Of a DNA stretch of 25,712 nucleotides, positions 2,115-21,064 are shown piece by piece. The DNA is from a virus (Duplodnaviria; Caudoviricetes): positions 1-25,712 of the IMG/VR virus record IMGVR_UViG_3300031758_000509; one strand, 5' to 3'. Made by a program: the position numbers and the translations under genes. Below the pieces are notes generated by a model. It saw only the letters and a list, made by a program, of their open reading frames with translations. It made no database searches and was not told where the DNA came from. The first letter of the stretch is position 1; the number at the start of each line of letters is the position of its first letter.

Positions 2115-3572
2115 GTGAGCATCCTGCGTCGCGTCTTCACCTCATCCGAGCAGCGATCATTGACGCTGCAAAACCTCACGCCGCTCGCCTTTGACAAGGT
2201 TCCCTTCCTCGGCAACCGTGAGGTTGATCAGAAGGCGGCGCTCGGACTCACGGCAGCCTACGCCAGCGTGCGACTGCTTGCCGATGTCGTCTCATCCTTC
2301 CCTCTTGACGCCTATCGCCGCGACAACGGCATCCGACGACCGTACCGTCCAGCGGGCGCGAAGCCGTCGTGGATGCTCACGCCGATCCCTGACGAGCCGA
2401 CCTACACGATCAACCAGCTCATCAGCGAGATCGTGGTGTCTCTCTACACGGACGGCAACGCCTTCATCTACGCGCCGCGCGACGAGCGTGGTGAGGTGCT
2501 GGAGGTGCGAGCCGTTGACCCGCGCCGCGTGGAGATCTACCGCGAAGGTCGCGAGATCAAATACAAGATCCATCAGGGGCAGGGCCAGCCGACGGCGGTT
2601 TACGGGCAGGAGACCATCCTGCACATCCCGCTCATCGCGATGCCAGGCGAACTTCGCGGCATCAACCCGATCCATCAACTCCGCGTCTCCCTTGCCCTCG
2701 GCTTGACGCTTGAGGACTACGCGAGCAACTTCTTCCGCACCGGCAGCACGCCAACGGGCATCATCGAGGTGCCGACTGATCTGACCAAAGAGCAGGGCGA
2801 GCAGCTCAAGGCGGGCTGGGCACGCCATCACAGCGGGCAGAATATGCACACGCCAGGCGTGCTCACGGGCGGCGCAACCTTCAAGCCGCTCACCTTCCGA
2901 CCTGAAGACGCGCAACTCCTCGCCTCGCGACAGTTCAATGTTGAGGAGGTTGCCCGCATCTTCCGCATCCCGCCGAATCTCTTGCAGGTCACGACGCCAG
3001 GCGCGATGTCCTACAACTCGGTGGAGCAGCAGAACCTCGCCTTCGTGCAATACACCCTGCGACCGCTCGTGGAGATGATCGAGCGACCGCTCAGCACGCT
3101 GATCCTCCTGCCAGACGCCTTCGTCAAGTTCTCAATGGACTCCATCCTGCGAGGCACGACGAAGGATCGCTACGACACCTACCGCGTCGGGCTTCAAGAG
3201 GGCTGGCTCAATGTCAACGACATTCGTAAGTTTGAGGACTTCGGGCCGATTGAGTCAGGCGACTCCTACCGAATGCCTCTCAACGAAGCCGATGCCGAGA
3301 CCGCGATGCTCTCCACGAAGGTAGACATCGTAGCGAAACTCGTGCAGGCTGGCTTCTCTCCAGCCGACGCCTCACGCCTTGTCGGAATCAAAGTCGCGCA
3401 CACTGGCGCAGCGCCAGTGACCGTGCAGCAACAGAACGCAGCTGAGGATGACACCGAGAAGCGCGAGGTCATCCAGCCGATCATAAATGTCACCGTTCCG
3501 ACGCCTGAGGCGCGCACGCGCCGAGTAGAGCGCGACGAGAGCGGCAATATCACCGCAATCGTAGAGGAGTAG
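2115..3572 (+). CDS. Portal protein, HK97 family, with C-terminal extension
   Basis: Motifs AYASVRLLADVVSSFPL, GNAF, ILHI, G.NPI, FFRTGSTPTGII, EEVARIFRIPP, SYNSVEQQ, LNVNDIRKFE. Position after terL; GGAGG SD. Confidence 0.96.
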   Translation: MSILRRVFTSSEQRSLTLQNLTPLAFDKVPFLGNREVDQKAALGLTAAYASVRLLADVVSSFPLDAYRRDNGIRRPYRPAGAKPSWMLTPIPDEPTYTINQLISEIVVSLYTDGNAFIYAPRDERGEVLEVRAVDPRRVEIYREGREIKYKIHQGQGQPTAVYGQETILHIPLIAMPGELRGINPIHQLRVSLALGLTLEDYASNFFRTGSTPTGIIEVPTDLTKEQGEQLKAGWARHHSGQNMHTPGVLTGGATFKPLTFRPEDAQLLASRQFNVEEVARIFRIPPNLLQVTTPGAMSYNSVEQQNLAFVQYTLRPLVEMIERPLSTLILLPDAFVKFSMDSILRGTTKDRYDTYRVGLQEGWLNVNDIRKFEDFGPIESGDSYRMPLNEADAETAMLSTKVDIVAKLVQAGFSPADASRLVGIKVAHTGAAPVTVQQQNAAEDDTEKREVIQPIINVTVPTPEARTRRVERDESGNITAIVEE

Positions 3573-3576
3573 ACCG

Positions 3577-3930
3577 ATGGCACTGACCCCAACGACACGC
3601 AACACGATGCTCGGCACGATCACGAGCAATGTCACGCACTTCAGCCTGCACACGGCTGACCCAGGCACGGCTGGCACCGCAGAGGTCACAGGCTCCCCGT
3701 ACACGCGCGAGGCGGCATCGTGGGCAGCGGCATCAGGTGGCACCGCAGCCACAAGCGCGGAAGTTGTCTTTGATGTGCCTGGCTCTACGACGATCACGCA
3801 CATCGGCTATTGGTCGGCATCTACCGCAGGCACCTTCTACGGCAGCCGCTCACTCGATGCTTCGCAGACCTACGCCACGACGGGAACCTACACGCTCGCC
3901 AGCGGGAACATCACCGAATCCCTGACCTAA
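3577..3930 (+). CDS. Putative minor virion beta-sandwich protein (LHTADPG family, usually annotated tail-fibre-like)
   Basis: SLHTADPG..G.AEV.G..Y.R....W and ITHIGYWSASTAGTF signature; Thr/Ala/Ser-rich; GAGGAG SD. Confidence 0.7.
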   Translation: MALTPTTRNTMLGTITSNVTHFSLHTADPGTAGTAEVTGSPYTREAASWAAASGGTAATSAEVVFDVPGSTTITHIGYWSASTAGTFYGSRSLDASQTYATTGTYTLASGNITESLT

Positions 3931-4507: not shown

Positions 4508-4777
4508 ATGACCTTCCGCGCAGAGCAATACAGCATTGGAACAGCGGCGGCGGCAATCGCCACTGCGACGGCAAAGAACATCCACGAGATCTCAATGGAA
4601 CTCGGCGCGAACAAGAACATCTGGGTTGGCGGCGCAGCCGTCACAAGCACCACAGGGTTTGAGATCGTCAAGGGCGGCCTTACGACGCTCAAGATCGGCA
4701 ACGGCGATGTGCTTTACGCCATCTCTGACTCTGCCGATACCGTGCTGGATGTGTACGACTTCCAGGTTGATCCGTAA
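4508..4777 (+). CDS. Hypothetical small beta-rich protein (possible head decoration)
   Basis: GAGGTG SD; stop overlaps the next start (TAATG). IWVGG..VT...GF and LYAIS pattern resembles small phage structural proteins. Confidence 0.65.
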   Translation: MTFRAEQYSIGTAAAAIATATAKNIHEISMELGANKNIWVGGAAVTSTTGFEIVKGGLTTLKIGNGDVLYAISDSADTVLDVYDFQVDP

Positions 4778-6666
4778 TGCCGTACTTCATCACCGATGAC
4801 AGCGCACAGTGCAGCGGCTGGGCGGTCGTCAAGCAGGACGGCGAAGTGATGGGCTGCCATACCACCAAGCAGGACGCCATCGCACAAATGGTCGCGATCT
4901 CGCAGGCTGAAGGCATTGAGCCTGGCGGCGAGCGCGCCTTGCCAGACAACTACCGTCCCGCACTCGCTCCTGATGTGCCCGAAGGCCGCGCCTGCGGCAA
5001 CTGCCACTTCTACAACGAAGATATGGTTCAGGGCGACAAGGCGTATTGCGAGAAGTGGGAAGCCTATGTCAACGGCGCGTACTATTGCAATGCGTGGCAG
5101 CCGCACGAGGAAGAGGAAGCAGGCTACGGCTACGACGACGAAGACTACGACGACGAAGACGAGGATGACTACGAGGACCGCGCCGATGCGCCCGCTCCGC
5201 CGAAAGATCAGATCACGGGCAGCGACGAGAATGAGCCAGGCTCCGCAGGAAATAAGACCGGCGACATCACGCTGACTGAAGCCACGGAGACTGCGCTTCA
5301 GAACAAGGCCGATGCCCACAACGAAGAGATGAACAAGCAGGATCGCCCGAACTGGACGCGGGTGCGCGTCGGATCGCTGCGATCCGTGTATCGCCGAGGA
5401 TCGGGCGCATACTCAGTCAGCCATCGCCCAGGCGTCAGCCGAGCGGCGTGGTCAATGGCTCGCGTCAACGCCTTCCTCTACCTCGCACGCACGGGCGCAC
5501 CAAAGAACTCTGCCTATGTCGGCGACAACGATCTGCTTCACCCAGATCATCCGCGCTATCGCAATGAGGAGCGCGCTCCGATCAACCCAGACGGCTACAA
5601 GCCGACCGAGGCAATGCAGGCAGAGGCGAGGCGCGGCCTTGATTGGCGCGCTGAGTTTGGACGCGGCGGGACCCTTGTGGGCGTGGCTCGCGCACGCGAC
5701 ATCGTGAATGGCAGCAACCTGCCGTTTGAGACGGTGGTGCGGATGCGCTCGTTCTTTGCACGACACGAAGTGGACAAGCAAGGTCAAGGATTCAATCCCG
5801 GCGAAGACGGCTATCCGTCCGCTGGCAGGATCGCGTGGGCGCTTTGGGGCGGCGACGCGGGTAAGCGGTGGGCCGACAATATCGTCGAGAACGCCGAGCG
5901 TAAGGAGAAACCGAAGATGGCAATCGAGTACCGACAGTTCCAGACGGAGATCCGCGCGGAAGGCGAGGACGGGCACACCTTCACGGGTTATGCCGCCATC
6001 TTCAACTCCGAAGCCGAAGGGCTGAGCACGCGGGAGATCATCAAGCCAGGCGCGTTCTCCAAGAGCGTAGCTGCGGCTGAGCGCGGCGAGTGGGAAGTCA
6101 AGGCGCTTCAGGATCACGATCCAAAGTACTTCCTCGGCTCAACCAAGACCGGCACGCTGGATCTTGAAGAGGATGATCGCGGCCTCAAGGTGCGCGTCTC
6201 CCTCAACCCAGAGGTGACCTTCGCCTCCGACCTCGCCGCAATGCTGCGCCGAGACGGTGCGGCGATGGGAATGTCCTTCGGCTTCTCCGTGCCGAACAAG
6301 GGCGATGCCTACGACGACAAGGGCGTGCGTGAGCTGCGGAATGTCCGCCTGCACGAAGTCAGCCTCCTGACGGGCAACCAGCCCGCCTATCCAGCCACCA
6401 TCGGCTTGGGCGCAGTCCGTTCGCTCTCTGAGCGCACCGAGATTGACCCATCAACGCTGATGCGTGCCTTTGACGCACTTCTCGCGGGAGCGCCCGATGC
6501 GGATTCAGCCGCAACGCTTGATCTCGCAATCCGCAAGATCAGTCCTGATCTGCGGCCTGAACCTGAGACTACAACGGAGCCAGAGGAAGCCGATGACCGG
6601 CTCGTACCTCTCTCTGTTCGTGAGCGCCAGTTGGCACTTGCCAAACTGGAACAGCAGATTCGCTAG
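4777..6666 (+). CDS. HK97-family prohead maturation protease fused to four N-terminal modules
   Basis: C-terminal part has FTGYAAIFN, REIIKPGAF, catalytic His (QDHD), catalytic Ser (GMSFGF) and LHEVSL..PAYPAT. Located between portal and capsid. The first 380 aa are extra modules. Confidence 0.93.
   Translation: MPYFITDDSAQCSGWAVVKQDGEVMGCHTTKQDAIAQMVAISQAEGIEPGGERALPDNYRPALAPDVPEGRACGNCHFYNEDMVQGDKAYCEKWEAYVNGAYYCNAWQPHEEEEAGYGYDDEDYDDEDEDDYEDRADAPAPPKDQITGSDENEPGSAGNKTGDITLTEATETALQNKADAHNEEMNKQDRPNWTRVRVGSLRSVYRRGSGAYSVSHRPGVSRAAWSMARVNAFLYLARTGAPKNSAYVGDNDLLHPDHPRYRNEERAPINPDGYKPTEAMQAEARRGLDWRAEFGRGGTLVGVARARDIVNGSNLPFETVVRMRSFFARHEVDKQGQGFNPGEDGYPSAGRIAWALWGGDAGKRWADNIVENAERKEKPKMAIEYRQFQTEIRAEGEDGHTFTGYAAIFNSEAEGLSTREIIKPGAFSKSVAAAERGEWEVKALQDHDPKYFLGSTKTGTLDLEEDDRGLKVRVSLNPEVTFASDLAAMLRRDGAAMGMSFGFSVPNKGDAYDDKGVRELRNVRLHEVSLLTGNQPAYPATIGLGAVRSLSERTEIDPSTLMRAFDALLAGAPDADSAATLDLAIRKISPDLRPEPETTTEPEEADDRLVPLSVRERQLALAKLEQQIR
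5897..5919 (+). promoter_or_regulatory. Internal SD plus in-frame ATG (5917) for the protease core
   Basis: AGCGTAAGGAG (5897-5907) is identical to the 11-mer before the capsid start (6739-6749). ATG follows 9 nt later, at the start of the protease domain (M381). Confidence 0.65.
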
Positions 6667-6757
6667 GGCGCAGCGCGAGGGCCTCACGGCACCACCGCTG
6701 GACGCACCACCGATGACGCAATCAACCCCAAACCAGATAGCGTAAGGAGTTAGACCA

Positions 6758-7933
6758 ATGTCTGACATCACCAAGACGCTTCACGAGCAGTACCGAAACG
6801 ACTGGGAAGAGGCTAAGTCCCTCCTCAATCGTGCGGCTGACGAGAAGCGCGAACTTTCCGCAGAGGAAGAGGCTCGTTGGACGAGCCTGAACGATTCAAT
6901 GTCTGCACGCAAGGCCAAGATGGATCAGGTTGCTGCCGCTGAAGAGCGCAGTGAGAAGATCGGCGCACTCGCAGAGCGCGCACTCAAGGTTGAGAATGCA
7001 GTCAAGGCTGACAACGATAGCGATGTCCTTCGGGCAATCGCAACCGGCGAGAAGCGACGCGCTCAGTTTGAGATCCGCGCTCTTGCATCCGCAGCCGCAA
7101 CCGTCCCAGTCACCTTCGCCGACTTCGTTGTCGTCGCGTTGACTGAGGGCAACCCGATCTACGAAGGCGCAACGAAGCTTCGCACGACCACGGGCGAGCA
7201 GATCACTCTGCCACGCGTGACGGCGAACCAGTCAGCCGCTTTCGTGACCGAAGGTTCAACGATCACCCCAGCCGATCCGACGATCTCGTCAATCACCCTC
7301 TATGCGAACAAGATCGCCAGCCTGACGCTTTTGTCGGCTGAACTTGTCCGCGATTCTGGATTTGACATCCTCGGCACAGTGGGCACCCAGGCGGGGGCCC
7401 AGATTAGTTTCGTTAGCGGTTCAGCGATGACCATCGGCACCGGCACGGTTCTGCCACAGGGCTTCGTCTCTGCGGCAACGGGCTTGAGCACCGCAACAAA
7501 GGCAGGCACCGTCTCGGCGACCTTCTTTGATGCGCTTGACCTTGCAACCGTCCTTTACTCGCTCAATCCTTCGTATCGCAACACCAACACTGTTTGGCAC
7601 GCGGCTACGACGGCAGTGAGCAAGCTCCGCAAGTTGCAGGATCTCAACGGGCAGTTTGTCTTCCAGCCGTCAATGGCGGCTGGTCAGCCTGACACCCTGA
7701 TGGGATACCGACTCAAGGAGAATGTCCATATGGCAGCGGTGGCTTCGGCCTCCAAGTCAGTGGCCATTATCCACGAGCCTTCGTACTATGTACGAGAACT
7801 CCCGATTGAGGTTGCGTCGTCAAGCGACTACCTCTTCAACACAAACCAGATTGCGCTACGCACTCTGTATGGTGTTGACGGAAACATCCCTGACCTGAAC
7901 GCGGTCAAGGTGCTCGTCTCGGCGAACACCTGA
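6758..7933 (+). CDS. Major capsid protein, HK97 fold, with N-terminal delta (scaffold) domain
   Basis: Helical, charged first ~107 aa ending EIR|A; then VP, A.FVTEG, S.ELVRDS, LRKLQDLNGQFVFQP, DTLMGY, F.TNQIALR. TAAGGAG SD. Confidence 0.96.
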   Translation: MSDITKTLHEQYRNDWEEAKSLLNRAADEKRELSAEEEARWTSLNDSMSARKAKMDQVAAAEERSEKIGALAERALKVENAVKADNDSDVLRAIATGEKRRAQFEIRALASAAATVPVTFADFVVVALTEGNPIYEGATKLRTTTGEQITLPRVTANQSAAFVTEGSTITPADPTISSITLYANKIASLTLLSAELVRDSGFDILGTVGTQAGAQISFVSGSAMTIGTGTVLPQGFVSAATGLSTATKAGTVSATFFDALDLATVLYSLNPSYRNTNTVWHAATTAVSKLRKLQDLNGQFVFQPSMAAGQPDTLMGYRLKENVHMAAVASASKSVAIIHEPSYYVRELPIEVASSSDYLFNTNQIALRTLYGVDGNIPDLNAVKVLVSANT

Positions 7934-8009: not shown

Positions 8010-9242
8010 GTGAGAATCGGTTGGACATCTAACGCGCCGTGGGCACCCACGGGATACGGCACACAGACGAACGAGATCGTCCCGCGCCTTGCAGCCGATG
8101 GGCATAAGGTCGCGATAATGGCGAACTACGGCTTCGCTGGCTCCACGATGGAGTGGCGACCTGGCATCCCCGTGATGGGACAAGGGCTAGACGCCTACAG
8201 CAATGACCTCACGCCCGCGCAGATCGGCAACTGGATCAACCAGACGACCGAGGATGGCGCAGGGCTGGGCATCTCTCTCTACGATGTCTGGGTATACAAG
8301 TCGCCGCAGTGGGACGAGATCCCAATGGCGTCGTGGACGCCTGTTGATCACAGCGTCGTACCTGAAGAGGTCAAGGCGTGGTTCAACCGTAAGGGCGCAG
8401 GCAAGTGGGCTATCGCGATGAGTCGCTTTGGCGAGCGCGAACTGCTTGATGCTGGACTAGAGCGCGACCGACTCTTCTACGCGCCGCACAGCATTCCGCT
8501 TGACATCTTCAAGCCTACGCCATCCAACATCCGCGCCGACCTGAATATTCCAGCCGACGCGCACCTCACGATTTGCCCGCAGGCGAACAAGGGCGTCACC
8601 CCGATCCGCAAGGCGTGGCCCGAACTGCTCCTCGCGTGGAGCCGCTTCGCACAGAAACACACCGATGCCTACCTCTACCTTCACACTGAGATGTTCGGTC
8701 TCGCTAACGGCACGAAGTTGGAGCGGCTGCTCAAGGCGGTCAACGCCCCGATGGATCGGGTGCGAGCCGTGCCGCAGTTCGCCTATCGGCAGGGGCTGGA
8801 TCAGGCGGTGCTCGCCAAGTGCTACACTGCAGCCGATGTGCTCCTTCAGCCCAGCAAGGGCGAGGGCTTCGGCATCCCGACAATCGAGGCGCAGGCGTGC
8901 GGCACGCCCGTGATCGTCACGAACTGGACGGCAATGCCCGAACTCGTGGGCGTCGGCTGGAAGGTCGGCGGTCAGCCAGAGTGGGATGAGCTGCAGACCG
9001 GCTGGTGGATGACCCCGAATGTTGACGAGATCGTAGACGCGCTGGAGCAGTCCTACGCGCTCAAGGCTGACACCGAGAAGGCGAAGGCAGCGTCCGAGGC
9101 GGCGGTTGCTTTCGCATCTAACTACAGCACCGAGAAGGTCTACGCCGAGAACTGGCGTCCGATCCTCAAGCAGATCGAGTCTGAGATCCCGAAGGCGAGC
9201 GGCCTGAACCGCGAACAGCGGCGAGCCGCCAAGCGCAAATGA
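8010..9242 (+). CDS. Glycosyltransferase, GT-B fold (GT4-like)
   Basis: N-terminal SNAPW.PTGYG, RKAWPELL, and E-x7-E motif PSKGEGFGIPTIEAQACGTPVI. GGAGG SD. Confidence 0.93.
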   Translation: MRIGWTSNAPWAPTGYGTQTNEIVPRLAADGHKVAIMANYGFAGSTMEWRPGIPVMGQGLDAYSNDLTPAQIGNWINQTTEDGAGLGISLYDVWVYKSPQWDEIPMASWTPVDHSVVPEEVKAWFNRKGAGKWAIAMSRFGERELLDAGLERDRLFYAPHSIPLDIFKPTPSNIRADLNIPADAHLTICPQANKGVTPIRKAWPELLLAWSRFAQKHTDAYLYLHTEMFGLANGTKLERLLKAVNAPMDRVRAVPQFAYRQGLDQAVLAKCYTAADVLLQPSKGEGFGIPTIEAQACGTPVIVTNWTAMPELVGVGWKVGGQPEWDELQTGWWMTPNVDEIVDALEQSYALKADTEKAKAASEAAVAFASNYSTEKVYAENWRPILKQIESEIPKASGLNREQRRAAKRK

Positions 9243-9766
9243 GCGTCACGGTTGTCACGGCAACGCTGCCTGAGCGGGAGAAACTGCTCAAGCGAGCCGT
9301 TGATTCGGTGCGAGAGCAGATCCTCCAACCAAGCGCACACCTGATCGGCGTGGATTATGCACGACGCGGCGGCGCGGCAATGAAGAACGATCTGGCTTTT
9401 GCCGCGCAGACCAAGTGGATCGCGCTGCTAGACGATGATGACTACCTCTACCCCAATCACCTGTCCTCGCTCGTTGAGGCTGCGGAGCGCGACGGATCTG
9501 ACATCGCCTACTCCTACGATGACGGTGCAAGGATGTACCGCGTCGGCTTTGAGGCGAACGCGCTGCGATCTAGCAGCATCGTCAGCCACAACGCCATCGT
9601 TCGCACCGCGCTCTTCAGAGAGTTGTGCGGCTTTGATGTCATCAAGGGCTACGACTGGCACTTCTGGGTCAAGGCGCTCAACCACGGCGCGAAGTTCACA
9701 CTCGTGCAAGAAGCGACCTGGTTCTACGATCTCAGCAACGAATGGAAGCACGAGAGCCGACCGTGA
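9239..9766 (+). CDS. Glycosyltransferase, GT-A fold (GT2-like)
   Basis: VTVVTAT..ER..LL.RAV.SV..Q, DxD motif in WIALLDDDD, and DWHFW. ATGA coupling. Confidence 0.9.
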   Translation: MSVTVVTATLPEREKLLKRAVDSVREQILQPSAHLIGVDYARRGGAAMKNDLAFAAQTKWIALLDDDDYLYPNHLSSLVEAAERDGSDIAYSYDDGARMYRVGFEANALRSSSIVSHNAIVRTALFRELCGFDVIKGYDWHFWVKALNHGAKFTLVQEATWFYDLSNEWKHESRP

Positions 9767-10386
9767 TCGTCATCCTCGCCGCTGGCAAAGCATCACGGTT
9801 AGGCGGCACGAACAAACTGCTCGTGGAGGCGGCTGGGCTGCCCGTGCACGAGTGGCACCGGCGTGCGGCTGGCAAACAGCCGACCTACGCGGTTGTGAGG
9901 CGAGACGACGAGAAGTCGGTGCTCAGCGCCGCTCCCTGGCTGGCTGGGGTGATTCCCCACGATGAGGCAGACGGCCCGTCTGGGGCGCTCCTGAGTGCCT
10001 CTACGGGGCTTCCAGGCGGCGCGCTCACCGTGCTCTTCGCCGATACCCTGCTCCCGCAGGTGCCAACGCACGATGGCGACTGGGTGGGTGTAGCTGCGGC
10101 ACCGTGGAGAATCTGGGACTACTACGACGCTTCCACCGAAGGCGGCTGGACGCGCGGCATTCCCGAAGTGCTTGTATGCTGCGGCATCTACCGCTTCACC
10201 AATCGCGAACTCCTCAATGACATCTGCTATGACCTCAAACTCGGCTCAACCAATGAAGTGCATATGGCTGATGTTCTGAGGTCGTATGCACCTCACCAGC
10301 CGCTCACGGAACTCATCGTGTCCGGCTGGCAGGATGCTGGCGACCCTGACGCGCTCAAGCGTGTCCAACCAATCAAGGAGACCTGA
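9763..10386 (+). CDS. Nucleotidyltransferase (sugar-phosphate NTP-transferase superfamily)
   Basis: VILAAGKASRL...NKLL signature, FADTL, CGIYRF, WQDAG. GTG 9763 overlaps the GT2 stop (GTGA), preferred over ATG 9742. Confidence 0.85.
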   Translation: MIVILAAGKASRLGGTNKLLVEAAGLPVHEWHRRAAGKQPTYAVVRRDDEKSVLSAAPWLAGVIPHDEADGPSGALLSASTGLPGGALTVLFADTLLPQVPTHDGDWVGVAAAPWRIWDYYDASTEGGWTRGIPEVLVCCGIYRFTNRELLNDICYDLKLGSTNEVHMADVLRSYAPHQPLTELIVSGWQDAGDPDALKRVQPIKET

Positions 10387-19754: not shown

Positions 19755-19937
19755 GTGACCAAGAGCCAAGTTGACGCAATCCTAGAGCGGCTTGATCGGA
19801 TTGAATCCGATCTTGCCTGCGTGCGCGTTGAAATGGCAGAGACCCGAGGAGCCTACCGATTGGCGAAGTTCGTCATCGCGCTGCTCGGAATCAGCGGGCT
19901 GGGAGGCCTGACAGCCTGGCTTTCTAACAGTAAGTGA
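19755..19937 (+). CDS. Small coiled-coil protein with C-terminal TM (XhlA-like architecture)
   Basis: ILERLDRIESDL heptads followed by FVIALLGISGLGGLTAWL. Confidence 0.7.
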   Translation: MTKSQVDAILERLDRIESDLACVRVEMAETRGAYRLAKFVIALLGISGLGGLTAWLSNSK

Positions 19938-21064
19938 ACCGCCGCCTAGTCGCTCTCGTGGCGGCGGCGGCGGTTTTCTTGCCGTTCGCGCAGGTCTACG
20001 CGCTCGATGAGCTAGACGAGTGGGAGTTCAGCACGGACTCCAACGGCACCATCGTGCTCAACGAAGATGGCTCAGCCACGCTTGGCGGCGCGAATGACCC
20101 GCTGCCGGAGCAGCCGCGCTGGAACGCGCTCACCAGCCTGACTACAACCGCGCTAGAGGCTGAGACGGCGCAGTACCTCTGGTCATACCTGACCACTGAC
20201 GGCGCGTACTACGACAAGCCGCAGTATCTAGTGGGCGGCGAGTGGCTCACGCTCGCAGAGGGAAACACGCAATCAGCGACTGGCTACATCGAGGTGGTGC
20301 TGGCCGCAGGTGACCTGTTCGGCTTCCGCGTGCTGAGCACGGATTCGTGCTGCGGCATCGGCTACCTGACCATCGCCGTAGGCAGCCCTACGCCGTCCCC
20401 AGAGCCGACTCCTGAGCCGACCCCGACACCTACGCCAGAGCCGAGCGTAGAGCCGTCTCCGTCGCCTACAGAGCCACCTACGCCTGAGCCAACGCCAGAA
20501 CCTACGCCTGAACCTACTCCCGAGCCAACCCCGCAGCCAACACCTGAGCCGTCGCCGGAGCCGTCGCCTGAGCCAACGCCAGAGCCGACCCCAGAGCCGA
20601 CGCCAGAGCCAAGCGAGGAGCCATCCAATGAGCCAACACCTGATCCAACGCAACCAGACGAGACTGCCTCACCCGAGCCGACGACCGCTCCATCCGAAGA
20701 GCCGTCGGAATCTCCTGTGGTATCTCCTGATCCCACTCCTGTACCTCCTGACGAACCCGAATCCCCTCTGCCAGATCTAGGCGAGGCCGCTGAAGCGGCT
20801 GCCGAGGTTGCAGGCGCAGCCGTGGAAGCCGTTGCCGATGCGCTCGGCGACATCGCTGCAATCGGCGAGATCGGGAAAGACCTAGACGCAACTGAGAAGG
20901 AAGAGGCGCAACCGATGGCGGTCGCCGTCATCTCCAGCCAGATCGCCAGCGTCGCAGCGGCGGCAGCAAATGCCGCACGCAGCACGACCGGCGGATCAAG
21001 CGGCGGAGGTGGAGGCGGCGGAGGCGGCGAGACGGGGGCGCGTAGCAGAAAGGGCCGCCGCTAA
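19934..21064 (+). CDS. Secreted protein with beta domain, EPTP-repeat stalk and hydrophobic/basic C-terminus
   Basis: Signal peptide MNRRLVALVAAAAVFLPFAQVYA, acidic beta domain with DSCCG, Pro/Glu/Thr repeats, Ala-rich helix, poly-Gly and RSRKGRR tail. Confidence 0.8.
   Translation: MNRRLVALVAAAAVFLPFAQVYALDELDEWEFSTDSNGTIVLNEDGSATLGGANDPLPEQPRWNALTSLTTTALEAETAQYLWSYLTTDGAYYDKPQYLVGGEWLTLAEGNTQSATGYIEVVLAAGDLFGFRVLSTDSCCGIGYLTIAVGSPTPSPEPTPEPTPTPTPEPSVEPSPSPTEPPTPEPTPEPTPEPTPEPTPQPTPEPSPEPSPEPTPEPTPEPTPEPSEEPSNEPTPDPTQPDETASPEPTTAPSEEPSESPVVSPDPTPVPPDEPESPLPDLGEAAEAAAEVAGAAVEAVADALGDIAAIGEIGKDLDATEKEEAQPMAVAVISSQIASVAAAAANAARSTTGGSSGGGGGGGGGETGARSRKGRR
20384..20769 (+). repeat. Coding 12-bp tandem repeats (EPTP/EPSP)
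   Basis: Repeated GAGCCNACNCCN units with synonymous variation. Confidence 0.9.

Follow-up and report, generated by a model that had tools for sequence, protein, structure and literature searches.

The stretch of DNA analysed here, called the window, is a 25.7-kb virus record (IMGVR_UViG_3300031758_000509, 25,712 nucleotides), which is estimated to be ~83% complete and carries terminase, portal, protease and HK97-type capsid genes. Between the portal gene and the HK97-type capsid gene lies an open reading frame (ORF) of 629 amino acids (aa) at 4777-6666 on the plus strand. It encodes a prohead protease preceded by small modules, one of them resembling high-potential iron-sulfur proteins (HiPIP). 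Its parts are given below, with a vertical bar marking the putative cut in each motif and pLDDT standing for the predicted local distance difference test score.

4777..6666 (+): 629-aa ORF; four modules, then an S78 prohead protease, then a C-terminal helical region
4777..4935 (+): module 1, aa 1-53; a helix and a sheet of three strands, with conserved residues (two Cys, one His), ending at R53 (G-E-R|A)
4936..5106 (+): core of module 2, aa 54-110; HiPIP-like four-Cys domain, holding an internal E-G-R|A (R71)
5107..5181 (+): acidic linker that runs up to R135 (E-D-R|A); pLDDT <50, length variable in relatives
5182..5574 (+): module 3, aa 136-266; DUF5824, helical, basic core of pI 10.2, ending at R266 (E-E-R|A)
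5575..5907 (+): module 4, aa 267-377; unnamed helical domain, likely ending at R375
5901..5919 (+): strong Shine-Dalgarno sequence with the M381 ATG; a protease of 249 aa without cargo probably starts here
5917..6420 (+): core of the protease, with invariant E384-x-R386, H447 and S500 and a near-invariant R393
6616..6663 (+): Leu-rich helix at the C-terminus, aa 614-628; predicted with low confidence, candidate prohead-binding element

A preliminary description of this DNA had proposed four separable modules ahead of the protease core, and both the position of the S78 domain (aa 391-541) and the loss and shuffling of modules in homologs bear this out. The architecture is real and widespread, a testable variant of probable head-cargo loading, with a junction motif that has been corrected and a probable internal start that has been added.

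The protease itself is well defined. Peptidase_S78 (PF04586) is matched at aa 391-541 with 110.1 bits against a gathering score of 21, and the best match of the structural model is T4 gp21 (5jbl; E 1.4e-3, prob 1.00). H447 and S500, which we take to be the active-site His and Ser of the S78 protease, are invariant in 42/42 aligned sequences together with E384 and R386. The protein resembles the gp4-type protease of HK97 in its S78 domain, its invariant His and Ser, and the position of its gene between the portal gene and a capsid gene with a ~107-aa delta domain. It differs in bearing 380 aa of shuffled N-terminal modules and in having Arg at the predicted sites, whereas the HK97 protease cuts after Lys. 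In HK97 the protease, gp4, is packaged in the prohead and cuts the shell. The prohead-binding role of a C-terminal helix of this kind comes from HK97, and similar C-terminal ends are present in 16 listed same-order fusions. The PHROG 80 profile (head maturation protease) already spans modules 1 and 2 and residues 274-578, and therefore an N-terminal extension is common in this family.

The modules range from 5.5 to 14.4 kDa. Module 1 is N-terminal in 73/75 matches. The suspected resemblance of module 3 to DUF5824 (PF19141) has been confirmed at aa 181-245, with 32.9 bits against a gathering cutoff of 25, and Atlas concurs. Module 2 shares with HiPIP (PF01355) four Cys that are invariant (A1 and A2), their spacing and a terminal C-x-x-W, and the profile covers the Cys region of 1hpi. 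It differs in lacking an export signal, in being embedded in a phage head protein and in scoring below the Pfam cutoff (aa 65-107, 14.6 bits versus 22, E=0.04). At E<=10, HiPIPs make up nine of its 13 PDB sequence matches (E 0.13-1.6); the best-scoring one, FlhC, is unrelated. The structural matches to HiPIP are weak, both in Foldseek (E 3.6, prob 0.60) and in VIA (Z 4.4, root-mean-square deviation 4.2, 61 aligned), module 2 being poorly modelled in the full-protein model. With matches this weak, it appears to be HiPIP-like rather than a proven HiPIP member. Its likely role would be to bind a [4Fe-4S] cluster, and its internal R71 is probably structural and protected from cutting, because it aligns two residues before the first Cys of HiPIP.

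Module 4 has relatives in 5,297 clusters (50%-identity level) at E<=0.001. For modules 3 and 4, binding of nucleic acid or of nucleotides would be the likely role, by way of their conserved Arg/His surfaces. Fold searches with modules 1, 3 and 4, which were not folded singly, gave no match above noise, and none in Foldseek at E<=0.001. Their best VIA score was Z 5.8; module 1 had PH-like matches, and module 3 had several matches to sigma region 2 at Z 4.2-5.0, too weak for helical bundles. The PDB sequence search returned zero matches for module 4 or for the protease. Viral proteins that join DUF5824 to a ferritin/Dps domain also exist (Atlas cluster, BFVD). A second HiPIP-like four-Cys module, unlike module 2, occurs in several protease strings (L058:251-3300, L129:2975-5467, L164:4758-5834; by eye, unscored).

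Each of the four segments had been said to end in R|A within the motif E-x-R|A. R|A is present at 53, 135, 266 and 393 of the 629-aa protein, and E-x-R-A occurs four times against 0.53 expected (10,000 shuffles, p=0.002). The strict matches are R71, R135, R266 and R393, and R53 stands in G-E-R|A with Glu at P2. The segment ends at R53, R135 and R266 are thus retained, while R393 is assigned to the protease; neither R71 nor R386 had been listed. The Arg before the modules is kept in homologs, but the consensus is looser. At 204 Arg boundaries, Glu occupies P3 in 41% and P2 in 28%, and P1' is Ala in 58% or Gln in 18%. The strict rule was rejected as too narrow, the looser motif being acidic…R|A/Q.

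Position is more telling than composition. Ahead of module 2 an Arg lies two residues away in 45/47 cases, against a background of 7.4%. Of 75 cases ahead of module 3, 60 have Arg as the last basic residue, 12 have Lys and 3 have neither, at distances of 3-10 residues. Ahead of module 4 (n=167) the last basic residue is Arg in 96, Lys in 63 and absent in 8, with 74 at one offset. An Arg just before each module, whatever precedes it, agrees with what had been expected of homologs. Junctions as DNA recombination scars were considered and rejected: all six Arg codons are used over the pooled junctions and 84/90 junction 9-mers are distinct, and therefore selection acts on the protein. A protease-free string, when modelled, has its boundaries in linkers of pLDDT <50. 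In the model of the window protein R135 and R266 fall in such segments and R53 borders one, module 2 itself being poorly modelled there.

Two further head proteins of the window carry related sites.

2115..3572 (+): portal protein; E-Q-R|S at R14 is a candidate site of the same protease
6758..7933 (+): major capsid protein of HK97 fold; its delta domain covers aa 1-107 and ends in E-I-R|A (7070-7081)

The capsid EIR|A at R107, the predicted maturation point, stands as first described. At the delta end the capsids of these loci mostly have E-x-R|[A/D/T], and E-x-R|[A/S] opens many of the portals (both by eye, uncounted). Where the protease is of the XkdF type, K|A or K|S is found on the flanks of module 4, and halovirus HGTV-1 is without a basic residue ahead of module 4. 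The Lys/Arg label switches ~20 times on the module-4 tree. That the junction residue follows the specificity of the protease, Arg or Lys, is suggestive only.

R393 was rejected as a module boundary, as it lies in a predicted protease beta-strand and as the motif pair is also present in cargo-free proteases. E-Y-R|Q at R386 stands next to E-I-R|A at R393, both Arg lying in predicted strands (384-388 and 393-395), and the same double E-x-R (or E-R-R) motif opens proteases that have no cargo. On sequence and model, R393 is part of the predicted N-terminus of the protease. The likelier release point of module 4 is R375, or self-cleavage at R386, because its last predicted helix, 359-377, with R375 as its final Arg, ends at 377.

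Modularity was followed in three sets: 46 close viral loci; the 120 best homologs of aa 1-380, out of 7,881 matches among 7,995 scored candidates; and 475 module-bearing proteins reduced to 236 at 70% identity. A single-contig artefact was rejected, since L001-L003 encode the same 629 aa, though one of them may be the window's own record. Module 3 occurs in 15 of the close loci. Another 22 lack it, and there module 2 leads directly to module 4, with an acidic linker and R|A junction in between. One close locus retains module 1 alone, and in at least one (L025) a HAD domain replaces modules 1-3. Twelve module orders occur in the 120 best homologs, among them 1-2-3-4-protease (44), 1-3-2-4-protease (23) and a protease-free 1-2-3-4 (34). 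The 236 non-redundant proteins show 54 architectures, so that number and order vary as had been anticipated. Modules added in homologs include HAD and Tudor-like domains, and gp6 of Pontimonas phiPsal1 consists of modules 1-2-4 plus protease. The protease-free strings are real genes adjoining a separate protease gene, in the order portal-protease-string at 7 and portal-string-protease at 6 of 80 loci. Modules are sometimes C-terminal to the protease, or fused to portal or protease-capsid proteins, e.g., in cultured Roseobacter CRP-821 and Synechococcus S-CBS1. In marine lambda-like phages, module-protease-capsid fusions (L048:3986-6910, L117, L127) contain another unnamed module, whose start closely follows an Arg junction.

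The partners of module 4 point to the head. Its carriers were scanned in 117 of its 150 best relatives, short ones and those already annotated by profiles being left out, and 63/117 combine it with a protease, portal, MuF or capsid family. These partners comprise S78, XkdF, ClpP and Mu-type proteases, four portal families, MuF and capsid proteins. Loading of the modules into the head is therefore supported, if indirectly. Enzymes are present in the same strings, namely HAD, ADP-ribosyltransferase (ART)-like and zeta/AAA_33 kinase-like domains, as are Hva1 Tudor domains. Some strings end in an ART-like domain or combine an XkdF protease with a zeta/AAA_33 kinase-like domain (L108:6707-8161, L162:4404-6632, L177:4998-7961). 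In PaBG, gp148 (L208:4956-5288) is module 4 as a free 110-aa gene, very basic and located among replication genes, and therefore module 4 can work alone. Its neighbours are topoisomerase II and an RNA 2'-phosphotransferase gene. A search for virion proteomics on these modules found none for S-CBS1, and gp148 is absent from the main text of the PaBG paper, supplements aside.

The probable internal start at M381 had been overlooked in the preliminary description. The Shine-Dalgarno strength is -9.2 kcal at M381 and -8.7 at the capsid start, and weak, -3.2, where the 629-aa ORF begins. Of the fused homologs, 28/54 have a Met 3-10 residues ahead of the protease E-x-R, versus 27/118 for other junctions (p=4e-4). 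In 12/28 loci, versus 4/66 control linkers, a start codon comes with a Shine-Dalgarno sequence of <= -5 kcal (p=5e-5, in statistics that ignore kinship). On these patterns it is rather likely that a second, short and cargo-free protease is also made from M381. The Shine-Dalgarno sites before M381 and before the capsid start share a ten-base context.

We favour, with some reserve, the interpretation that the modules are co-assembled in the prohead as cargo of the long-form protease, are cut apart and probably stay as internal head proteins. The long form would enter the prohead by its protease end, and the short M381 protease would dilute the cargo copy number. The protease would cut the delta domain, the portal tip and the linkers after Arg, and in the 629-aa protein the cuts would fall at 53, 135, 266 and near 375/386. 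The released folded modules of 5-14 kDa would then remain in the head as internal proteins. Cleavage at the module junctions is the step we consider quite probable from the sequence patterns. The balance tips slightly towards retention of the folded modules in the head, and their ejection with the DNA, which the preliminary description had raised as delivery into the host, seems doubtful. More speculative still, and in our judgement improbable, is a wider scenario. In it, aquatic small HK97-type phages would draw on a common pool of thousands of mobile head-interior domains, gained and lost at a protease code that can be read from sequence and that matches the specificity, Arg or Lys, of each phage. 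The released domains, among them an iron-sulfur protein of HiPIP type and two Arg-rich helical domains, would be injected with the DNA as early takeover or anti-defence factors, and the internal start, which also yields cargo-free protease, would set their dose.

Several observations weigh against cargo loading and cleavage. None of the modules of this protein is a recognised enzyme in Pfam and PHROG scans. Lys or Arg is present in 79% of random 12-mers, and therefore only a fixed position and P1' are informative. The excess of acidic-R|[AQS] sites in linkers (2.26 per 100 aa versus 0.45 in cores) speaks for cleavage but is inflated by linkers being acidic anyway; many of the core sites are supplied by R71 of module 2. 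R71 (E-G-R|A) matches the motif within a domain and R393 is not a boundary, and therefore the motif alone does not predict cutting. The Lys/Arg residues flanking module 4 upstream and downstream covary (40,13;14,29; p=3e-5), but this is unproven, as a phylogeny-aware test of low power, with only 2-3 supported independent pairs, was non-significant. The Lys-type module-4 cores are themselves richer in Lys (0.34 vs 0.26). Two of the 46 close loci (L038, L039) lost module 4 via junctions that are not at R|A. A Leu-rich helix ends only 4/8 of the listed protease-free 1-2-3-4 strings, which weakens the case for their loading.

Among other explanations, the one that survives best, though still improbable, is that the modules serve head assembly only, as scaffold or chaperone helpers. 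The Arg sites would then allow their removal, and the pieces would exit the head or be degraded. The fusion partners are overwhelmingly assembly proteins, and the discarded delta domain bears the same motif several times, both as this explanation would have it. Yet the modules are optional and unordered among phages with 87-99% identical proteases, their cores are conserved and site-poor, enzymes occupy the same slots, and the free module-4 gene of PaBG lies away from head genes. Somewhat less probable is that the long form or the cut modules act in the cytoplasm late in infection. Here the short M381 product would mature the head, and a late accessory gene would have become fused to the protease simply because the stop codon separating them was lost. 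The strong Shine-Dalgarno sequence at M381 compared with that at the ORF start, the unfused string-protease gene pairs and the free module-4 gene fit this view. Prohead proteases, however, act mainly inside the prohead, and the modules are also fused to the N-termini of portal, MuF and capsid proteins and C-terminally to the protease, which argues for the head interior. Least probable is that the junction Arg is a structural N-cap or a relic in a protein that stays whole: a structural E-x-R is possible in this protein, as seen at R71, R386 and R393, and the Arg before module 2 keeps a fixed distance from the core, but the signature is common to the capsid, the portal and three folds that are unrelated, the spacing ahead of module 3 is variable, Lys replaces Arg in other lineages and HGTV-1 has neither before module 4.

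The proposed cargo release from a protease fusion has relatives among known systems. T4 IPI-III and Alt are internal proteins of ~8-20 kDa that are put in the prohead, cut by gp21 and retained; gp21 is itself packaged and cuts the shell as well (PMC9026906). There they come from separate genes with a 10-19-aa targeting propeptide and are cut after Glu, and their ejection has been shown (PMC9026906). The modules of the window protein are similarly small, and their proposed placement in the prohead, cutting and retention are alike. They differ in that several cargos are chained to the S78 protease itself, with Arg junctions, in a small HK97-type phage. They would work like T4 internal proteins rather than belong to that class, which has a capsid-targeting propeptide and a gp21-type S77 protease, neither of which is found here.

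The preliminary description knew of no characterised example of this architecture, a statement that is not supported. Protease-anchored cargo is already in print in general terms (PMC5512222, PMC9503650). The accessible text of Iyer 2017 (PMC5512222) describes polyvalent proteins with assemblin-like peptidases at their C-termini and proposes their processing, and that of Iyer 2022 (PMC9503650) a Nudix domain fused to a capsid-processing serine peptidase. The window protein shares with polyvalent proteins the multi-domain build (2-15 domains), the shuffled architecture and the head-gene context. It differs in having no recognised enzymatic or DNA-binding effector domain, such domains (HAD, ART-like) being present in relatives. 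In the accessible parts of both papers there is no junction motif, DUF5824, module 4, HiPIP-like module or internal start, and 'HiPIP' occurs 0 times in that of 2017. The accessible parts of PMC7824862, PMC9024508, PMC7412058 and PMC12991175 hold nothing on these modules. No description of DUF5824 or of this architecture was found in a literature search to which subscription papers and supplements were outside. New here are the HiPIP-like module 2, the protease-free strings beside a protease gene, module 4 both fused to many head families and free, and the probable M381 start.

If the modules are indeed released and kept, very common small aquatic phages would carry T4-like internal proteins by a simpler route, chained to the protease. 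To our knowledge, HK97-type heads are usually regarded as protein-empty after maturation. The junction motif would allow cargo to be predicted from sequence, and both a location and a role open to testing would follow for DUF5824 and for the unnamed module 4. Carriers in culture include Pontimonas phiPsal1 (gp6), Synechococcus S-CBS1/3 (gp4 in S-CBS1) and Roseobacter CRP-821 (gp39).

One small gene directly precedes the ORF.

4508..4777 (+): 89-aa gene, its stop overlapping the ORF start; also seen ahead of such proteases elsewhere

Because of this overlap the two genes are likely translationally coupled. The 89-aa gene has no Pfam match and weak PHROG matches, and lies just upstream of module-bearing proteases in many loci. 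A 117-aa Gp80/phrog_240-like gene (3577-3930) stands between portal and protease and is found in several related loci. Directly 3' of the capsid gene, as in phiPsal1, lies a glycosyltransferase gene (Pfam GT1/GT4), followed by two genes resembling GT2 and nucleotidyltransferase (judged by eye; window 8010-10386), and virion glycosylation is a possible function of this cluster. After the tail genes, a 376-aa protein (19934-21064) carries a long Pro-Thr-Pro-Glu repeat tract.

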